In this document: positions 1-6,491 of the stretch, in pieces | Position numbering within the stretch: the stretch's first letter is position 1 | Layout: each line of letters starts with the position of its first letter | DNA from: a virus | Strand: one strand, 5' to 3' | Virus genome (UHGV): UHGV-0232909 | DNA: 12,461 nucleotides | Notes under the pieces: model-generated | What the model was told of the DNA's origin: nothing | Database searches by the model: none | Seen by the model: only the letters and a program-made list of their open reading frames with translations | Position numbers and translations under genes: made by a program

Positions 1-24
1 AAATGTGTACCGCGAGATCTGAAA

Positions 25-321
25 GTGAATGAAACGGATGCTGAATACCTGGTGCGTAAATTTGATGCGCTTGAAGCTAAATGTGCAGCACTGGAAAACA
101 AAGTAATACCAGTGTCAGCTGAACTGCCGCCAGCGAATGAAAGTGTTCTGTTATTTGATGCTAATGGAGAAGGCTGGCTGATTGGCTGGCGTTCTCTCTG
201 GTATACATGGGGGCAAAAAGAAACCGGAGAATGGCAGTGGACATTTCAGGTCGGGGACCTTGAAAACGTCAACATCACTCACTGGGCAGTAATGCCAAAA
301 GCACCGGAGGCTGGAGCATAA
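25..321 (+). CDS. DUF551-like phage early protein (start uncertain; frame is open to the window edge)
   Basis: 98-aa ORF beginning at a GTG; the same frame is open back to base 1, so the true start may lie upstream. Trp-rich C-terminal half ending ...ITHWAVMPKAPE resembles the DUF551 signature of lambdoid/P22-like early-region proteins. Stop TAA overlaps the next ATG (TAATG at 319-323). Confidence 0.55.
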   Translation: MNETDAEYLVRKFDALEAKCAALENKVIPVSAELPPANESVLLFDANGEGWLIGWRSLWYTWGQKETGEWQWTFQVGDLENVNITHWAVMPKAPEAGA

Positions 322-1130
322 TGACCACATTTACCGATAAAGAACTGATTAAAGAAATCAAAGAACGAATCAGCAGCATGGACGTGCGAGACAATGTTGA
401 GCGCCGTGCTTATGAAATTGCTCTGGCATCGCTGGAAGAGGATCCGGTGGCATGGCTGCATTCAGACAATGGCTTAGGTATTCCGGCAATAACCAGGAGT
501 AAAAACATTGCTGACAGTTGGTTATCAAAGGGCTGGTATGTTCAGCCGCTATATATAGCTAAGCCAGTGCCGGTGGTGCCAGATGCTCGTCCGTCTTTAA
601 ATAATGGCATAGTCGGTTTTGATGAAGGCTGGAACGCCTGCCGCGCTGCCATGCTCTATGGTGCCGTACCTGCAAGCCAGGCTTACAAGTTGCCACAAAC
701 GCAGTTTAAACAGGTTGCTGACCTCTACGAAATGCAATTTGATGACGGTCGCACTTGTGCCTTTCACACTGATGCGCAAAAGGCTGTGCAATGGCTTCAG
801 GCGTGCGACGGAAACAGGGTTCAGGAATACGTTAAGCTGGAACGATTGCAGAACGCACTGTCTGGCAACTCTCCGGTAACTCCGGATGGTTGGGTTATGG
901 TGCCGAAGAGACTAACAGCCGAGAACGGCGCTAAGGGGGCGCTATCCGGTGAATTTTCAGAAACTACGTTTATAAGCTGCCTGGAATGCTTTGGCGATGA
1001 TGATTGCGATACCTGTGACGGGAGCGGACGTATTGAAATTAAAGTGCCAGTCACGTGGTCGACCATAAAATCTATCTGGGATAAAGGTATCGAGTATTTT
1101 GCAGCAAAACCATCACAAGAGGTGAAGTGA
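321..1130 (+). CDS. hypothetical phage early protein with C-terminal CxxC-x5-CxxCxGxG zinc-ribbon motif
   Basis: 269-aa ORF with ATG at 321 and GGAG 4 nt upstream. C-terminus CLECFGDDDCDTCDGSGRIEIK is a DnaJ-like zinc-finger motif. Its stop TGA (1128-1130) overlaps the ATG of the exonuclease gene. No family recognised for the N-terminal 200 aa. Confidence 0.6.
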   Translation: MTTFTDKELIKEIKERISSMDVRDNVERRAYEIALASLEEDPVAWLHSDNGLGIPAITRSKNIADSWLSKGWYVQPLYIAKPVPVVPDARPSLNNGIVGFDEGWNACRAAMLYGAVPASQAYKLPQTQFKQVADLYEMQFDDGRTCAFHTDAQKAVQWLQACDGNRVQEYVKLERLQNALSGNSPVTPDGWVMVPKRLTAENGAKGALSGEFSETTFISCLECFGDDDCDTCDGSGRIEIKVPVTWSTIKSIWDKGIEYFAAKPSQEVK

Positions 1131-1702
1131 TGAACAACTTAATGATCGACCTTGAGACGATGGGGAAAAATAAGGATGCACCGATCGTTTCCATTGGCGC
1201 GGTGTTCTTCACTCCAGAAACCGGAGACATCGGACAAGAATTCTATACGGTTGTTAGCCTGGAAAGTGCTATGGGGCAAGGAGCTACACCTGACGGCGAT
1301 ACCATCCTGTGGTGGTTGAAACAAAGCCCTGAAGCACGAGCTGCAATCTGTATTGATGATACTTTGTCGATCAGCGATGCTCTCTCAGAACTAAATCATT
1401 TCATTAACCGGCACGCAGACAATACGAAATATTTAAAAGTCTGGGGTAACGGAGCCACCTTCGACAACGTAATTTTACGTGGAGCTTATGAGCGAGCAGG
1501 ACAAATCTGCCCGTGGGCATACTGGAATGACCACGATGTACGCACGATCGTTACGCTTGGGCGTTCCATCGGATTCGACCCCAAAATGGACATGCCTTTC
1601 GATGGCGAACGGCACAACGCCCTGGCTGATGCCCGTCATCAGGCAAAATATGTTTCCGCTATCTGGCAGAAATTAATTCCTGCCACCAGCACAGAATTAT
1701 GA
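1130..1702 (+). CDS. DEDDh-family 3'-5' exonuclease (DnaQ/RNase T-like), phage-encoded
   Basis: Exo I motif MIDLETMG (D-x-E), Exo II motif WGNGATFDNVIL, Exo III motif HNALADARHQAKY (H-x4-D) are all present in order. The ORF track starts at GTG 1127; ATG at 1130 with GAGG at 1118-1121 is the more likely start. Confidence 0.85.
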   Translation: MNNLMIDLETMGKNKDAPIVSIGAVFFTPETGDIGQEFYTVVSLESAMGQGATPDGDTILWWLKQSPEARAAICIDDTLSISDALSELNHFINRHADNTKYLKVWGNGATFDNVILRGAYERAGQICPWAYWNDHDVRTIVTLGRSIGFDPKMDMPFDGERHNALADARHQAKYVSAIWQKLIPATSTEL

Positions 1703-1738
1703 TTTTCCCGGGTGCAGCCGGTTTTGATGGAGAAAATT

Positions 1739-2020
1739 ATGAACACCTTGTTTTTACTGATGGCTGAATTCAATACCCCTAACATTGAACTCTCAGCAGT
1801 TAGCCAAAAGTACTTTGGCATGAGTCCAGCCACGGCAGAAGCAAAAGCAAACGCTTGTAAGTTGCCCGTTCCAACATATCGCATCGGCACATCACAAAAA
1901 GCAAAACGTTGCATCAATATTCAGGATCTTGCGGAATACATAGACAAAAGACGAGAAGAAGGACGTATCGAGTGGGAACAGGTCAGAACAAGCAAACAGA
2001 AGGGCAAAGAACATCACTAA
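1739..2020 (+). CDS. PrtN/excisionase-like small DNA-binding protein (putative Xis)
   Basis: N-terminus MNTLFLLMAEF... is typical of the PrtN / prophage excisionase-like family. GGAG at 1729-1732 sits 6 nt before ATG 1739; the longer ORF-track version starts at GTG 1712 without an RBS. Located upstream of, and in the same orientation as, the integrase. Confidence 0.65.
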   Translation: MNTLFLLMAEFNTPNIELSAVSQKYFGMSPATAEAKANACKLPVPTYRIGTSQKAKRCINIQDLAEYIDKRREEGRIEWEQVRTSKQKGKEHH

Positions 2021-2022
2021 AT

Positions 2023-2050
2023 AAAAAACCCGCCTAAAGGCGGGTTTTCA
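2023..2050. terminator. bidirectional rho-independent terminator
   Basis: AAAAAA-CCCGCC-TAAA-GGCGGG-TTTT: a perfect 6-bp GC stem (2029-2034 / 2039-2044) with a 4-nt loop, flanked by an A-run upstream and a T-run downstream, so it gives a U-tract on either strand. It lies between the convergent genes ending at 2020 (+) and 2068 (-). Confidence 0.7.
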
Positions 2051-2067
2051 AAAAGCACCAGCTATGA

Positions 2068-2241
2068 TCATGCTGCTTTGCGACGACGAAGCTTACCCTG
2101 CTGCTCTTTACCAGAGACAGTAGCGTGAGTGAACGCATTATGAGCAGCCTTCATCAGAACTTCAACAGCAGCACCCATACCTGCGAATGCTTTCATTGTG
2201 TCGAACTTAACCTGTGGCTTGGTTGCTTTTTGATCTTCCAT
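2068..2241 (-). CDS. small basic-tailed protein (57 aa), third gene of the minus-strand accessory cassette; absent from the ORF track
   Basis: Hand translation of the minus strand: MEDQKATKPQVKFDTMKAFAGMGAAVEVLMKAAHNAFTHATVSGKEQQGKLRRRKAA. A strong SD (AGGAG) sits 7 nt upstream of the ATG (ATG = complement of 2239-2241). Stop at 2068-2070, immediately followed by the bidirectional terminator. Confidence 0.45.
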   Translation of the reverse strand: MEDQKATKPQVKFDTMKAFAGMGAAVEVLMKAAHNAFTHATVSGKEQQGKLRRRKAA

Positions 2242-2280
2242 AGAAAACTCCTGAAGTTATACCGAAACAATTCCTGTTGT

Positions 2281-2700
2281 TTACTCATCATCAATAGATG
2301 ATACGCAATATTTATTTTTAAATTTAAGGTTCTTTGGCGTAACTTCATCAGAGATATCAAAACCGTCCAGAATTCTATTGAATGTAGCTTCTGGCATATC
2401 ATCATGAACAGAAATCTCACCCGATCGCTGCTTTCTAACCATGTTATCCACTCGCCAAATTATAGCTTCAGCGTAAACAACATAACTTGGATGCTTGATA
2501 AAGCGATGATCACCAGAATTCAAGATGCAAGACGGATCGTGGGGGACACCATCCTTGATACTAGAAATATTAACAACTAAAACACAATAACAATCGTTAA
2601 CGGGGTAATAAACAGGATCATTACAAATCACATGAAGATGATTGCATGGCCCAGTTGGGGCAAGCACAGTTCCTTTCCTGTATGGCTGATAATCCGTCAT
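2281..2700 (-). CDS. unknown 139-aa protein translationally coupled to the Panacea-domain gene (candidate toxin/effector)
   Basis: ATGA overlap with the upstream gene (stop/start share 2697-2700). No recognised family. Cys/His-rich N-terminal half (CNHLHVICNDP...DCYC...DPSC...DHRFIKHPS) and acidic C-terminus (SSIDDE). AT-rich codon usage unlike the flanking phage genes. Confidence 0.65.
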   Translation of the reverse strand: MTDYQPYRKGTVLAPTGPCNHLHVICNDPVYYPVNDCYCVLVVNISSIKDGVPHDPSCILNSGDHRFIKHPSYVVYAEAIIWRVDNMVRKQRSGEISVHDDMPEATFNRILDGFDISDEVTPKNLKFKNKYCVSSIDDE

Positions 2701-3269
2701 GATAATTGCAAAGAAAATTCCTTAAGTTTCTGAGATTCTTCCATTTTGCCAATTATGCGATTAGCCTCATCCTCGCTTTTACCCTCACTGATCAGCATTT
2801 CTTTCAGGTCTATAGGCTTACGAGAATTGCCAGGATCGTGCCACTCTGGACAAACGCTTTCTAAATGCGTCATATTTGCGAGATCAAATCGGTTCATATG
2901 CCCATACCGAGAATAGATTTCATCTAAAATCCGGATATCTGCACGACTCAATTCATCAAAGACCTCGTCTGCATCCATTTCCCTCGGATCTGAACGCAAC
3001 GATACATTATGCCCGTTCGTCTCTATCAAGTTGTACCAGTAGTCACCAATGCCTTCAGCCTTACCGCGAATCAAGTTCAGCGTATTCGACATGACTGGTC
3101 CAAATTTCATAGAGTAAAGGCTATCTTCGCCGATCATCCTGCCATGCTTCAAAATCGACTGGCGGTTAGACAGATAGAGCAACTTCATCAATTTCAGATA
3201 TGCCATGCGCCCACCTCGCTTAAGAAGTAGGTATGCAGCCATTTGAGCTACTTTTTCTTCGCAAAACAT
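2697..3269 (-). CDS. Panacea-domain protein (SocA/PanA-like; DUF4065), putative antitoxin
   Basis: 190-aa ORF. The segment AAYLLLKRGG-RMAYLKLMKLLYLSN...KFGPV matches the Panacea-domain core pattern (K-L-x-K-L-L-Y ... G-P-V). GAGG lies upstream of the ATG (complement of 3267-3269). First gene of a three-gene minus-strand operon. Confidence 0.75.
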   Translation of the reverse strand: MFCEEKVAQMAAYLLLKRGGRMAYLKLMKLLYLSNRQSILKHGRMIGEDSLYSMKFGPVMSNTLNLIRGKAEGIGDYWYNLIETNGHNVSLRSDPREMDADEVFDELSRADIRILDEIYSRYGHMNRFDLANMTHLESVCPEWHDPGNSRKPIDLKEMLISEGKSEDEANRIIGKMEESQKLKEFSLQLS

Positions 3270-3660
3270 ATAAGAAACCTCAAAGATAGTGAACTTTATA
3301 ATTATTCTCGATACTTCATGGGTTGCTTCATCACCAACACGAGCTTCTTATGGTGTGCCCACTTGGGCCTAAGCAACCAGTTACCTCGTTTGTCAAGTTT
3401 ATAGCTGGCTTTAACCATGGTCAATTGAAGTGATGAGCAAATGATGCTTTCTAAGAATAACAGGTTCCCAATAGGCTCCCACAAAGTGTATAACTAGTTG
3501 TTTTTCAAAAACGGTACATCCTATCGAGCATAGGAGCAATGCTAAACCGAGAATTCCAGTAAACACCAGTTTTTTCAGGCATCACGCTGGTTTGATTAAT
3601 TTTTTGTGTTTCATGATTATCGTGCATTTTTGAACATTTCAGGCTATTTTTCTCGCATTA

Positions 3661-3696
3661 GGTTCCCGCACAGGTTCCCACGTTTTATGGGAACCC
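3661..3696. promoter_or_regulatory. cluster of GGTTCCC(A) repeats immediately upstream of int (candidate operator or integrase arm-type sites)
   Basis: GGTTCCC at 3661-3667 and 3673-3679 (direct) and GGGAACC at 3689-3695 (inverted), giving the palindrome GGTTCCCA-cgtttta-TGGGAACC. A second pair, CAGGTTCCCA / AGGCTCCCA, lies at 3461-3480. The int RBS (GAGG, 3705-3708) and ATG (3716) follow directly. Confidence 0.3.
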
Positions 3697-3715
3697 GAAA
3701 TAACGAGGTCGTGTA

Positions 3716-4813
3716 ATGGCGTACTATAACATAGAGAAACGACTAAAATCCGATGGCACACCACGCTATCGCTGTAATGTGATTATCAAAGAAAAAGGTG
3801 TTATCACTTACAGGGAAAGCAAAACATTCCCTAAACATGCTCATGCCAAAACATGGGGCACACAGAAAGTGATGGAATTAGATCTATATGGCATTCCATC
3901 ATCAAATGCAGTTGACGGACTTACAGTCCGTGACTTACTACACAAATATTTAAATGACCCAAATGCCGGAGGTAAAGCAGGCCGTACTAAAAGATATGTG
4001 CTGGAACTGCTTATGGATAGTGACATCTCCGCGATCAAACTATCTGAACTGACAGAAAATGACGTAATTGAACATTGCAGGCTAAGAAACAACGCTGGCG
4101 CAGGTCCAGCAACAGTCAGCCACGATGTTAGTTATCTTGGCAGTGTTCTGGATGCGGCCAAACCTGTATACGGAATTAATTACACATCAAACCCGGCGAA
4201 AAGTGCTCGTCCATATCTACTTAAACTTGGTTTGATTGGTAAATCAAACCGTCGTAATCGTAGACCAGCATCTGATGAACTGGACATGCTCATTGAAGGC
4301 CTTCAACAACGATCTACTCATAAATGCTCAAAAATTCCGTTCGTTGATATCCTCAAATTTTCTGTGTGGTCCTGTATGCGAATCGGAGAAGTATGCCGGT
4401 TACGATGGGAAGATCTCGACCAGGAACAAAAATCTATACTCGTAAGAGACAGGAAAGATCCACGCAAAAAGGAAGGCAACCACATGAAAGTAGCCTTGCT
4501 TGGGGAAGCCTGGGATATCGTCCAACGACAGCCCAAAAAATCGGAATTCATTTTTCCATATAACAGCACTTCTATTACTGCGGGATTTCAGAGGGTAAGA
4601 AGCAAATTAGGTATTAAGGATCTGCGATACCATGATTTGCGTAGAGAAGGGGCAAGTCGCTTATTTGAGGCTGGTTTTAGTATTGAGGAAGTAGCCCAGG
4701 TTACAGGGCATCGTTCATTAAACGTGCTATGGCAGGTATATACCGAACTGTATCCGAAATCTTTACATAATCGTTTTGAAGAGCTCCAAAGGAGCAGAAA
4801 TAAGACCCCTTGA
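3716..4813 (+). CDS. int: tyrosine-type site-specific integrase
   Basis: 365-aa ORF with RBS GAGG 7 nt upstream. Carries the conserved tyrosine-recombinase boxes: MRIGEVCRLRWEDLD (Arg box), HDLRREGASRL (H-x-x-R) and a C-terminal GHRSLNVLWQVYTELY with the candidate catalytic Tyr. Confidence 0.9.
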   Translation: MAYYNIEKRLKSDGTPRYRCNVIIKEKGVITYRESKTFPKHAHAKTWGTQKVMELDLYGIPSSNAVDGLTVRDLLHKYLNDPNAGGKAGRTKRYVLELLMDSDISAIKLSELTENDVIEHCRLRNNAGAGPATVSHDVSYLGSVLDAAKPVYGINYTSNPAKSARPYLLKLGLIGKSNRRNRRPASDELDMLIEGLQQRSTHKCSKIPFVDILKFSVWSCMRIGEVCRLRWEDLDQEQKSILVRDRKDPRKKEGNHMKVALLGEAWDIVQRQPKKSEFIFPYNSTSITAGFQRVRSKLGIKDLRYHDLRREGASRLFEAGFSIEEVAQVTGHRSLNVLWQVYTELYPKSLHNRFEELQRSRNKTP

Positions 4814-4861
4814 CACTGTTTATCCATACAGTTAAAAATAATACTGTATACAAACACAGTA
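4810..4861 (+). promoter_or_regulatory. SOS-regulated promoter: TTGACA -35 hexamer plus two LexA boxes (CTGT-N8-ACAG)
   Basis: TTGACA at 4810-4815 overlaps the int stop codon. LexA-like box 1 is caCTGTttatccatACAGtt (4814-4833). Box 2 is taCTGTatacaaacACAGta (4842-4861), a near-consensus SOS box lying between the promoter and the RBS AGAGGG (4863-4868) of the DinI-like gene. Confidence 0.6.
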
Positions 4862-4874
4862 TAGAGGGACTTTT

Positions 4875-5123
4875 ATGCGTATTGAAATCTGCATAGCCAA
4901 AGAAAAAATGACTAAAATGCCAACCGGTGCTGTGGATGCGTTAAAGGAAGAATTAACCCGACGCATCAGTAAACGTTATGACGATGTAGAGGTGATCGTA
5001 AAAGCCACCAGCAACGATGGCCTTTCTGTTACACGCACCGCAGATAAGGATTCTGCAAAAACTTTTGTTCAGGAGACTCTGAAAGATACCTGGGAATCTG
5101 CTGACGAGTGGTTTGTTCACTAA
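4875..5123 (+). CDS. dinI: DinI-family DNA-damage-inducible protein (phage-borne paralogue)
   Basis: 82-aa protein [31 protein letters not shown]...[16 protein letters not shown] aligns along its whole length with E. coli DinI from memory (MRIEVTIAK...QETWESADDWFV). Preceded by LexA boxes and a good RBS. Confidence 0.85.
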
Positions 5124-5190
5124 TTAACACGTAAAATCGGTAACGGCTGGAAATCATTCAATAATCGCACTATCGAAAGTTCGCCAGCCA

Positions 5191-5226
5191 GCCGCAGCAC
5201 GTTCTTGCATACGACGTGGCTGCGGC
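5191..5226. other. extended imperfect stem-loop between the DinI-like gene and the invertase remnant
   Basis: GCCGCAGC (5191-5198) pairs with GCTGCGGC (5219-5226); the inner CACGT/ACGTG also pair, giving a stem of about 12 bp with one bulge and an 11-nt loop. No clear U-tract on either strand, so it is not a canonical intrinsic terminator. Confidence 0.35.
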
Positions 5227-5266
5227 TTCCAACATTAGACAAATAACTCTTTAAATTGCTTTTAAA

Positions 5267-5635
5267 TTATTTCGTTTGAATGCCAGTAACAGGAAATCGT
5301 TTATATAGGGTTGATAGCCCAACGTTATAGATACGTGCAACATAACGCCGTGATTTCCCTGCCGCTATGAGCGCTCCCATCTGTTGCCACTGCTCGTCGC
5401 TAAACTTCGGTCTACGCCCACCAATCCGGCCTTTGGATCTGGCAATAGCCAAACCAGCTAAAGTTCGCTCGCTATTCAAATCAGATTCATACTGCGCAGC
5501 AGAAAGAATATTACGGAAATTATAGCGACCACTTGCTGTTTTCAGGTCTACGCCATCTGTAATACTCCGAAAATTAACACCTTTTTCGTGCAGATTTTGA
5601 AACATCAATAGCGCATGCAGCACATTTCTCCCTAA
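5267..5635 (-). pseudogene. pin: N-terminally truncated serine DNA invertase (Pin/Gin/Hin family) remnant
   Basis: The translation ...PLGRN-MLHALLMFQNLHEKGVNFRSITDGVDL...SKGRIGGRRPKFSDEQWQQ...YNVGLSTLYK matches the C-terminal two thirds of Pin/Gin (LGRSMKHLISLVGELRERGINFRSLTDSIDT...NKGRIGGRPPKL...ALSTLYKK). The roughly 70 N-terminal residues, including the catalytic Ser region, are absent; similarity stops near 5636 and no ATG-initiated full-length frame exists. Confidence 0.8.
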
Positions 5636-6014: not shown

Positions 6015-6491
6015 ATGAGATTTTCAGTTAGCACCCAATCATTCTACGATGATAATTACGAGGAAAACGCAGTAGTCAACGATTTACCCTCAGATGTTCA
6101 GGCGATAGATGATGAGCAATATGCTAGTTTTTTTAATGCAATAAATAGTGACCGGGTGGTTTATCTGGTTGCTGACGAATTCACGATTTCTCAACCCCGC
6201 CCCGATAAATACTATTCATGGGATATGACAAGTAAGACCTGGGCTATGACTGATGCTGCCGTAGCACAAAAGTCGGCAGACCTGATAGCTGATGCTGAGC
6301 TACGGAGAACAACGTCGTTATCAGCAGCAGGTATCGCAATATCCCCGCTGCAAGATGCCGTTGATCTGGGTATGGCTACAGATGTAGAAACGAGGCGACT
6401 GACAGAATGGAAAAAATATCGGGTATTGCTGATGCGTATTGATACATCAAAAGCCCCCGATATCGAATGGCCATCAGTACCGGTCAGTTGA
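6015..6491 (+). CDS. tfa: tail fibre assembly protein (Tfa/gpU-like chaperone)
   Basis: C-terminal region [50 protein letters not shown] matches the conserved Tfa C-terminus (APLQDAADL...[22 protein letters not shown]). ATG at 6015 with GAGGA 6 nt upstream; the ORF-track start at 5991 is a TTG. Confidence 0.8.
   Translation: [158 protein letters not shown]

Follow-up and report, generated by a model that had tools for sequence, protein, structure and literature searches.

When a small open reading frame stands behind a toxin-antitoxin pair, on the same strand and at a short distance, how can we tell whether it belongs to the pair or only lies next to it? The question is raised by a stretch of DNA from the virus genome UHGV-0232909, which we analyzed at its full length of 12,461 nucleotides and to which we refer as the window. 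Here, a 57-aa ORF follows the genes for a PanA antitoxin and for a 139-aa putative PanT-type toxin, that is, a pair of the Panacea kind. The features that matter to the question are these.

1712..2020, plus strand: PrtN-family gene (PF11112), closing the early-left operon and converging on the small ORF.
2024..2049, minus strand: intrinsic, bidirectional terminator, its 11-bp stem followed by a U tract, which also serves the convergent PrtN-family gene.
2068..2241, minus strand: gene for the 57-aa small protein, family phrog_2741, with its ATG at 2241-2239 and its TGA at 2070-2068.
2242..2280, minus strand: spacer of 39 nt from the 139-aa gene to the small ORF, unstructured and terminator-free, with a swap junction at 2254/2255.
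2248..2252, minus strand: Shine-Dalgarno AGGAG, 6 nt from the ATG, within a block conserved with the GNAT-type loci described below.
2255..3462, minus strand: window-specific 1.2-kb segment, from blastn against phage mEp460, with the PanA upstream region, PanA and the 139-aa gene.
2281..2700, minus strand: gene for the 139-aa putative PanT-type toxin (phrog_19071), which overlaps PanA by 4 nt.
2697..3269, minus strand: PanA antitoxin gene, SocA/Panacea domain (PF13274, E 2e-19).
3396..3424, minus strand: sigma-70-like site TTGACC-17-TAAACT inside the cassette-specific segment, by its consensus match a candidate promoter for a three-gene transcript.
3523..3627, minus strand: phage-borne dusA 5′ fragment in the attP region, upstream of the cassette and on the same strand.
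3716..4813, plus strand: tyrosine integrase of the dusA-targeting type, which marks the other side of attP.

Window bases 3-5634 have 99.7% identity to Escherichia phage SKA5, and the layout is common to phages Lys8385Vzw, mEp460, and hundreds of dusA-integrated E. coli prophages. An early-left operon ending with an exonuclease and the PrtN-family gene runs on the plus strand into the terminator, followed on the minus strand by the small ORF, the 139-aa gene and PanA; beyond PanA come the dusA 5′ fragment, the integrase, and DinI. This arrangement agrees with that of the dusA-targeting integrase family (PMC4482086). From its position beside attP, the PrtN-family gene may act like an excisionase for the dusA integrase. 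The dusA fragment comprises 35 codons on the cassette strand (window 3523-3627; locus L005 4824-4928). In a lysogen, the truncated dusA 5′ end, and presumably with it the host dusA promoter, would be aimed at PanA, the 139-aa gene and the small ORF, so that read-through from a host promoter is conceivable.

Further along the window, the identity to SKA5 stops exactly at 5634. A Pin/Gin-type DNA invertase on the minus strand (window 5270-5635) is missing its first 65 residues, including the catalytic-serine region, in comparison with the 187-aa SKA5 protein. Either the switch that inverts the tail fibre may no longer work, or a different tail module may have been joined at 5634. The tail-fibre-assembly region also has a match to the Rfam family IS009 (window 6247-6451, plus strand) that at 59.8 bits is below the gathering score of 117; the corresponding match in mEp460 (L002 2165-2365) has 91.7 bits against the same gathering score.

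The first-pass annotation had described a 57-aa ORF with AGGAG just before its ATG, close downstream of the 139-aa gene on the same strand, and with its stop shortly before a terminator hairpin. All of this can be located in the sequence. The ORF is present from ATG to TGA (product MEDQKATKPQVKFDTMKAFAGMGAAVEVLMKAAHNAFTHATVSGKEQQGKLRRRKAA), AGGAG is found at 2252..2248 with 6 nt in between, the gap to the 139-aa gene measures 39 nt, and the terminator (2049-2024; −23 kcal/mol, z −4.2) lies 18 nt past the stop. A scan for terminator-like sites between the 139-aa gene and the small ORF found none, and shuffled versions fold at least as well as the 39-nt spacer does (z +1.1). Within window 1900-3800, promoter-like sites, among which is the sigma-70-like candidate, are no more numerous than expected by chance. 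This in silico layout makes it probable that the transcript of PanA and the 139-aa gene has the small ORF as its last cistron. The description of the ORF as a third cistron thus fits its strand, the 39-nt gap, its own Shine-Dalgarno, and a terminator that comes only after it. The further proposal of a functional third component is not supported, for the reasons that we present below.

Is the ORF a gene at all? Its length is unremarkable by itself, because the window has 106 ORFs of at least 40 aa. RefSeq already annotates it as a hypothetical protein (WP_000390072 / WP_165386319). The evidence that carries the case is conservation. The product matches the phrog_2741 HMM over its full length (residues 1-57 vs. 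profile 1-57/57, E 1.1e-33), which is its sole family match; we found none in Pfam, NCBIfam, PADLOC, or a sequence-profile search of the PDB. A large protein collection contains 46 clusters of such proteins in Enterobacteriaceae, almost all close to 57 aa in length (the sources are E. coli, Salmonella, Enterobacter, Atlantibacter, Franconibacter, and Cronobacter), and homologues of about 57 aa occur in at least 10 enterobacterial genera. Between genera, dN/dS is 0.07-0.25, variable sites are distributed over the three codon positions as 13/14/30 with the bias towards the third, and a Shine-Dalgarno-like GGAG or GAGG upstream of the ATG is kept in 92/92 loci examined. Conservation of the reading frame had been proposed as a check on the ORF, and this purifying pattern comes down on the side of a gene.

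An exhaustive HMM search of 1.84 billion representatives reports only 14 proteins, all of them small and none annotated. The motif FDT..F..MG.A.[DE].L.KA.P...QG[RK]...AA, with a basic stretch ahead of the final Ala-Ala, is still present in remote relatives (53-61 aa), and both length and reading frame persist to identities as low as about 30%. The window protein has all the motif elements, including QG[KR] and the C-terminal AA-COOH, except one: the proline that is nearly invariant across phrog_2741 is a histidine in the window allele (P34H). The conserved family, the dN/dS, and the conserved Shine-Dalgarno identify the 57-codon frame as a gene rather than a chance ORF. On this comparative sequence evidence, we take it as established that the small ORF is a real protein-coding gene, member of a family of uncharacterised small proteins.

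How did this gene come to stand behind a Panacea pair? The comparison with mEp460 by blastn is informative here. The window has 98% homology with mEp460 over 5228-3463 and over 2254-1108, and in between, window positions 2255-3462 stand for 803 bp of mEp460 (L002 4185-4987) that hold a 178-aa GNAT gene and a 196-nt leader. The homology breaks 13 nt upstream of the ATG of the small ORF, just outside the Shine-Dalgarno, and because it breaks there, we attribute the adjacency of the ORF and the Panacea genes to a cassette swap, with no co-inheritance. In an SKA5-like lineage, a 1.2-kb PanA/PanT-type cassette replaced the GNAT gene and its leader, and the small gene kept its Shine-Dalgarno and its terminator.

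The swap site between attP and the small ORF holds either the PanA/139-aa pair (208 genomes) or the GNAT gene with its leader (358). The ORF itself is found in 562 complete E. coli genomes, of which the two configurations (208 + 358 vs. 562) make a near-exact partition. In roughly one half of 92 loci, the small ORF comes after the Panacea pair, and in the other half after a 177-181-aa gene and a gap of 156-196 nt. This GNAT-type half includes every locus from outside Escherichia.

The usual neighbour of the small ORF is a 177-184-aa protein with a GNAT fold (phrog_4350). In mEp460, this is the 178-aa mEp460_023 (WP_000956557), and the small gene is mEp460_024 (WP_000654815). Searching up to 500 nt downstream of the GNAT gene, we find the small ORF at 93-196 nt in 91/91 GNAT-gene loci, whose proteins range from 40 to 100% identity. 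Edwardsiella, Serratia, Photorhabdus, Brenneria, Plesiomonas, and Shewanella also encode distant homologues of the 178-aa protein, and every such locus examined has a 54-58-aa family member 93-178 nt further on. The association also holds when looked at from the other side, in that two remote relatives of the small ORF (P0050 and P0052) have GNAT homologues upstream at 47-49% identity. Moreover, the two genes travel together between positions: at the dusA prophage end (including Salmonella), after cI, inside the tail genes, before the holin gene, and, in Enterobacter and metagenomic lambdoid phages, between the Q-type antiterminator region and the lysis genes. Among the loci seen, the GNAT gene never occurs without the small ORF. 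The small ORF, on the other hand, occurs without the GNAT gene in the 44 Panacea-type loci and in Cronobacter phages. By gene order and homology, then, the GNAT gene and the small gene form a mobile module of temperate phages in Enterobacterales and Shewanella, and the GNAT-fold gene is the normal, ancestral neighbour of the phrog_2741 family.

The assignment to the GNAT fold comes from structure prediction. The 178-aa protein has no match in Pfam (including the acetyltransferase models), PADLOC, or PDB sequences. Its AlphaFold2 model (pLDDT 89, pTM 0.87) has a GNAT fold, and a Foldseek search with this model gives 273 PDB matches at E ≤1e-3, with AtaT, TacT3, TacT2, and KacT among the best. 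The fold search does not tell apart tRNA-acetylating toxins and protein N-terminal acetyltransferases. The protein has an atypical version of the Q/RxxGxG/A-type motif, HPLxGxM.

The small protein had been described as having a helical core and a basic tail, and AlphaFold2 is in agreement, with a single helix (residues 14-31) between disordered tails and a mean pLDDT of 69, followed by a basic, conserved C-terminus. The helix has many Ala, Gly, and Met residues, is of moderate hydrophobicity, and carries the charged residues K17, E27, and K31. A Foldseek search with this single-helix model gave one match only, which is meaningless. The protein has a GRAVY of −0.57, a mean helix hydrophobicity of 0.3-0.4, a net charge of +6, and a pI of 10.2. 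We considered a small membrane toxin of the type I-like kind and rejected it, since by these hydrophobicity values the protein has no hydrophobic transmembrane segment. The tail, RRRKAA, ends in Ala-Ala and is conserved in the family; we take it to resemble ClpX recognition tags such as those of ssrA (-LAA) and MuA (-RRKKAI).

Has the gene changed its way of evolving after the swap? In Panacea-type loci (n=44), we count 7 nonsynonymous and 3 synonymous polymorphisms, with four changes in the helix, including the P34H of the window, vs. 3 nonsynonymous and 9 synonymous in GNAT-type loci. A Fisher test of the two configurations gives a one-sided p of 0.046 and a two-sided p of 0.084. The signal is weak, and it indicates that the small gene in the window is probably under relaxed constraint and possibly decaying. 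The small ORF is nevertheless intact with its full C-terminal tail in 44/44 Panacea-type loci, given which it may have retained a function there.

The explanation that we favor, and that we consider moderately probable, is that the small gene is the orphaned phrog_2741 partner of a GNAT protein, antitoxin-like in nature, left behind by the Panacea swap. Since the GNAT gene is never found alone and the small gene sometimes is, the antitoxin-like reading is favored, and since the window has no GNAT partner, the small ORF in it would be an orphan that rides on the Panacea transcript. It would be read as the last cistron of that transcript and take no part in the neutralisation of the Panacea toxin. 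In its native setting, the small protein would be a binding partner of the GNAT protein, with its helix (about residues 14-35) docking on the enzyme much as TacA and AtaR engage, through their C-terminal peptides, TacT and AtaT, GNAT toxins whose structures came up in the fold search. By analogy, the basic Ala-Ala tail would make the small protein a labile, antitoxin-like inhibitor. The copy in the window would then be an orphan, probably under relaxed constraint.

A bolder version goes further, and we think it unlikely. It proposes that phrog_4350 and phrog_2741 together are an undescribed mobile module of the toxin-antitoxin or abortive-infection type, with a minimal downstream antitoxin that has no DNA-binding domain and with a leader of its own, and that the orphan in the window is still functional. 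As an example of such a function, the orphan may neutralise the GNAT effector that a related incoming phage or a prophage encodes (anti-addiction, cross-immunity).

An equally doubtful alternative takes the small protein as a dedicated substrate, cofactor, or regulatory subunit of the GNAT enzyme, and not as an inhibitor. For instance, acetylation of its N-terminus or of a tail lysine could yield an active product, and the window copy would be a functionless remnant. The one-way dependence of the GNAT gene on the small gene fits an obligate substrate or cofactor equally well. The full tail that is intact in all 44 Panacea-type loci would be unexpected for a remnant, however, unless the swap is recent. 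And a conserved leader together with an Ala-Ala end is more typical of a labile, independently regulated inhibitor. Neither argument is decisive.

We next consider whether the small ORF could be independent of both of its neighbours, that is, a moron gene acting by itself on the host, for example through a small inhibitor of a host protein or protease, as lambda CIII is of FtsH, and with mere physical linkage to whichever accessory gene lies upstream. The ORF does have its own Shine-Dalgarno and terminator everywhere, the terminator accompanying it in other phage contexts too, and it was kept after the Panacea swap. In Cronobacter podophages, it lies on the opposite strand in the portal/terminase interval behind unrelated genes (an 85-aa gene or one of the gp49_66 family), with a hairpin between. 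We also observe that the Cronobacter ORF is preceded by the conserved palindrome GTGACATGTCAC and a hairpin, and by about 800 nt without a called gene. The Cronobacter copies (L095 3832-5160; L105 4550-5165) have a truncated or altered C-terminus without Ala-Ala, which weakens them as examples of an autonomous gene.

The leader of the GNAT-type loci could be another argument for autonomy, in that a conserved block with a weak promoter-like arrangement lies upstream of the small ORF. We compared the leaders of L002 (4805-5000) and the equivalent gaps in L007-L011, L093, L099, and L106. Before the small ORF comes TAGACG-N18-TAGGAT and then three inverted repeats, the last of which abuts the Shine-Dalgarno; the blocks TAGACG, TAGGAT, CCAATCG-N6-CGATTGG, and GAGAC-N6-7-GTCTC (the one abutting the Shine-Dalgarno) are invariant across genera, and they are absent from the window. 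TAGACG-N18-TAGGAT agrees with the promoter consensus at 8/12 positions, which is not above shuffled controls. RNAalifold predicts hairpins in the leader with a covariation term of about zero, and in Rfam no family spans the leader. We thus dropped the idea of a riboswitch or thermometer, since with this covariation an RNA structure and DNA palindromes are indistinguishable. The leader may act as a promoter, an operator, or an RNA structure. What speaks against an autonomous gene is the co-occurrence with the GNAT gene in 91/91 loci, down to 40% identity and in at least 4 kinds of position, which is hard to obtain by linkage alone. We therefore regard autonomy as improbable.

This brings us back to the Panacea pair, and to the proposal that the small ORF is its functional third component (regulator, nucleic-acid-binding adaptor, or second antitoxin). 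The proposal has several things going for it: the probable co-transcription with PanA and the 139-aa gene, the basic tail, the third genes that are known in some PanAT clusters (PMC8832971), and the fact that in E. coli, where there is a pair there is essentially always the ORF. In 205/208 E. coli genomes with the pair, the match covers at least 80% of window 1700-3700. But because there is a single insertion locus, this near-perfect association is what we expect from the locus itself, rather than from co-selection.

To go beyond E. coli, we can follow the 139-aa protein. It has no match in Pfam or PADLOC. We considered a vague likeness to MazF/PemK and do not claim it, as Pfam gives no such match. 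Its homologues, at 36-53% identity, are found in Yersinia, Klebsiella, Pseudomonas, Vibrio, and Helicobacter phages, and it has conserved Cys/His positions. Those with 43-53% identity adjoin DUF4065/PanA-type genes in Yersinia YeP1-3, Klebsiella ST13-OXA48phi12.5, and Pseudomonas Sirocco; the neighbour gene is PanA-sized in all of these, and in the Klebsiella phage it is annotated as DUF4065. If the small ORF were part of the system, we would look for it there, and synteny in homologous cassettes had indeed been suggested as a check. These pairs lack the small ORF: run with the filters off, the family HMM found no relative of it at any of the Yersinia, Klebsiella, and Pseudomonas loci. The Yersinia and Klebsiella phages would not even have space for it, since the start of a convergent gene follows their 139-aa homologue after 17-37 nt.

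The reciprocal is also true, in that the ORF is Panacea-free in Salmonella, Enterobacter, Pseudescherichia, Franconibacter, and Cronobacter. Homologous pairs without the ORF, an ORF that is commoner without Panacea than with it, and a junction 13 nt before the ATG all argue against a regulator, adaptor, or second antitoxin of Panacea, as do the signs of relaxed constraint in the Panacea configuration. Accessory third genes of PanAT occur in a small fraction of genomes only, and probably have no general role (PMC8832971). A functional third component is then very improbable.

Finally, that the ORF is not protein-coding, and either arose by chance or is conserved because it acts as an RNA or a terminator, is an alternative to which we give almost no credence: it could point to the short length, the disordered predicted tails, and weak Rfam terminator-type matches that overlap the 3′ end, but Rfam on the window and on the GNAT-type loci reports only sub-threshold terminator-like matches with no family at the gathering threshold, and the dN/dS, the third-position bias, the length and frame kept to about 30% identity, and the conserved Shine-Dalgarno all contradict it.

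What does this mean in practice? The cassette in the window is best annotated as a two-gene PanA/PanT-type system followed by an unrelated leftover gene. More generally, it is a caution that tripartite systems should not be inferred from adjacency within one species. The swap site also shows how alternative accessory cassettes interchange next to attP in dusA-integrating E. coli phages. As for the GNAT gene and its small partner, no Pfam, NCBIfam, or PADLOC model includes the module, PHROGs lists both families without a function, and a literature search found no papers on either protein; the RefSeq accessions are absent from the supplements of the Panacea paper. If the module were truly of the toxin-antitoxin or defence type, the GNAT toxin family would gain a new type of antitoxin and a new gene layout, and the 57-aa protein would be a very small, tractable neutralising element.

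How does all this compare with systems that have been described? Lambda CIII is a 54-aa protein with a single amphipathic helix that acts as a competitive inhibitor of FtsH. Like CIII, the small protein is a very small phage protein with one helix, disordered ends, and a possible link to an AAA+ protease; unlike CIII, to which it has no sequence similarity, its link would be to ClpXP, by the resemblance of RRRKAA to a tag. In the manner of phage morons, the GNAT and small genes have their own terminator and appear in unrelated genomic positions, but they do so as a conserved two-gene unit, and not as a single gene. PanA-PanT systems with a third gene share with the window the 4-nt overlap, the toxin-like gene, the prophage location, and a third gene on the same strand (PMC8832971), whereas the third gene of the window is not conserved with homologous pairs and is a member of another module.

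Of the systems described so far, the GNAT/RHH toxin-antitoxin pairs come closest (PMC9177977, PMC6698736). The differences are several. Here the enzyme comes first, and a gap of 93-196 nt takes the place of the overlap of the GNAT/RHH (DUF1778) pairs; the partner is 53-61 aa long with one helix and no ribbon-helix-helix domain; and there is no sequence match to the Pfam acetyltransferase models or to the GNAT toxins in the PDB. Of what characterizes a type II antitoxin, the small ORF has the conserved adjacency and the GNAT-fold partner, and has neither the RHH/DUF1778 domain nor the overlapping order. On the other hand, TacAT, AtaRT, KacAT, and ItaRT are, as here, two-gene prophage modules in which a GNAT-fold protein of about 175 aa is paired with a small one, and in their solved complexes a C-terminal peptide of the antitoxin lies on the toxin, as we propose for the helix of the small protein. 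And in both cases, the gene for the enzyme is never found without its partner, while orphan partners exist.
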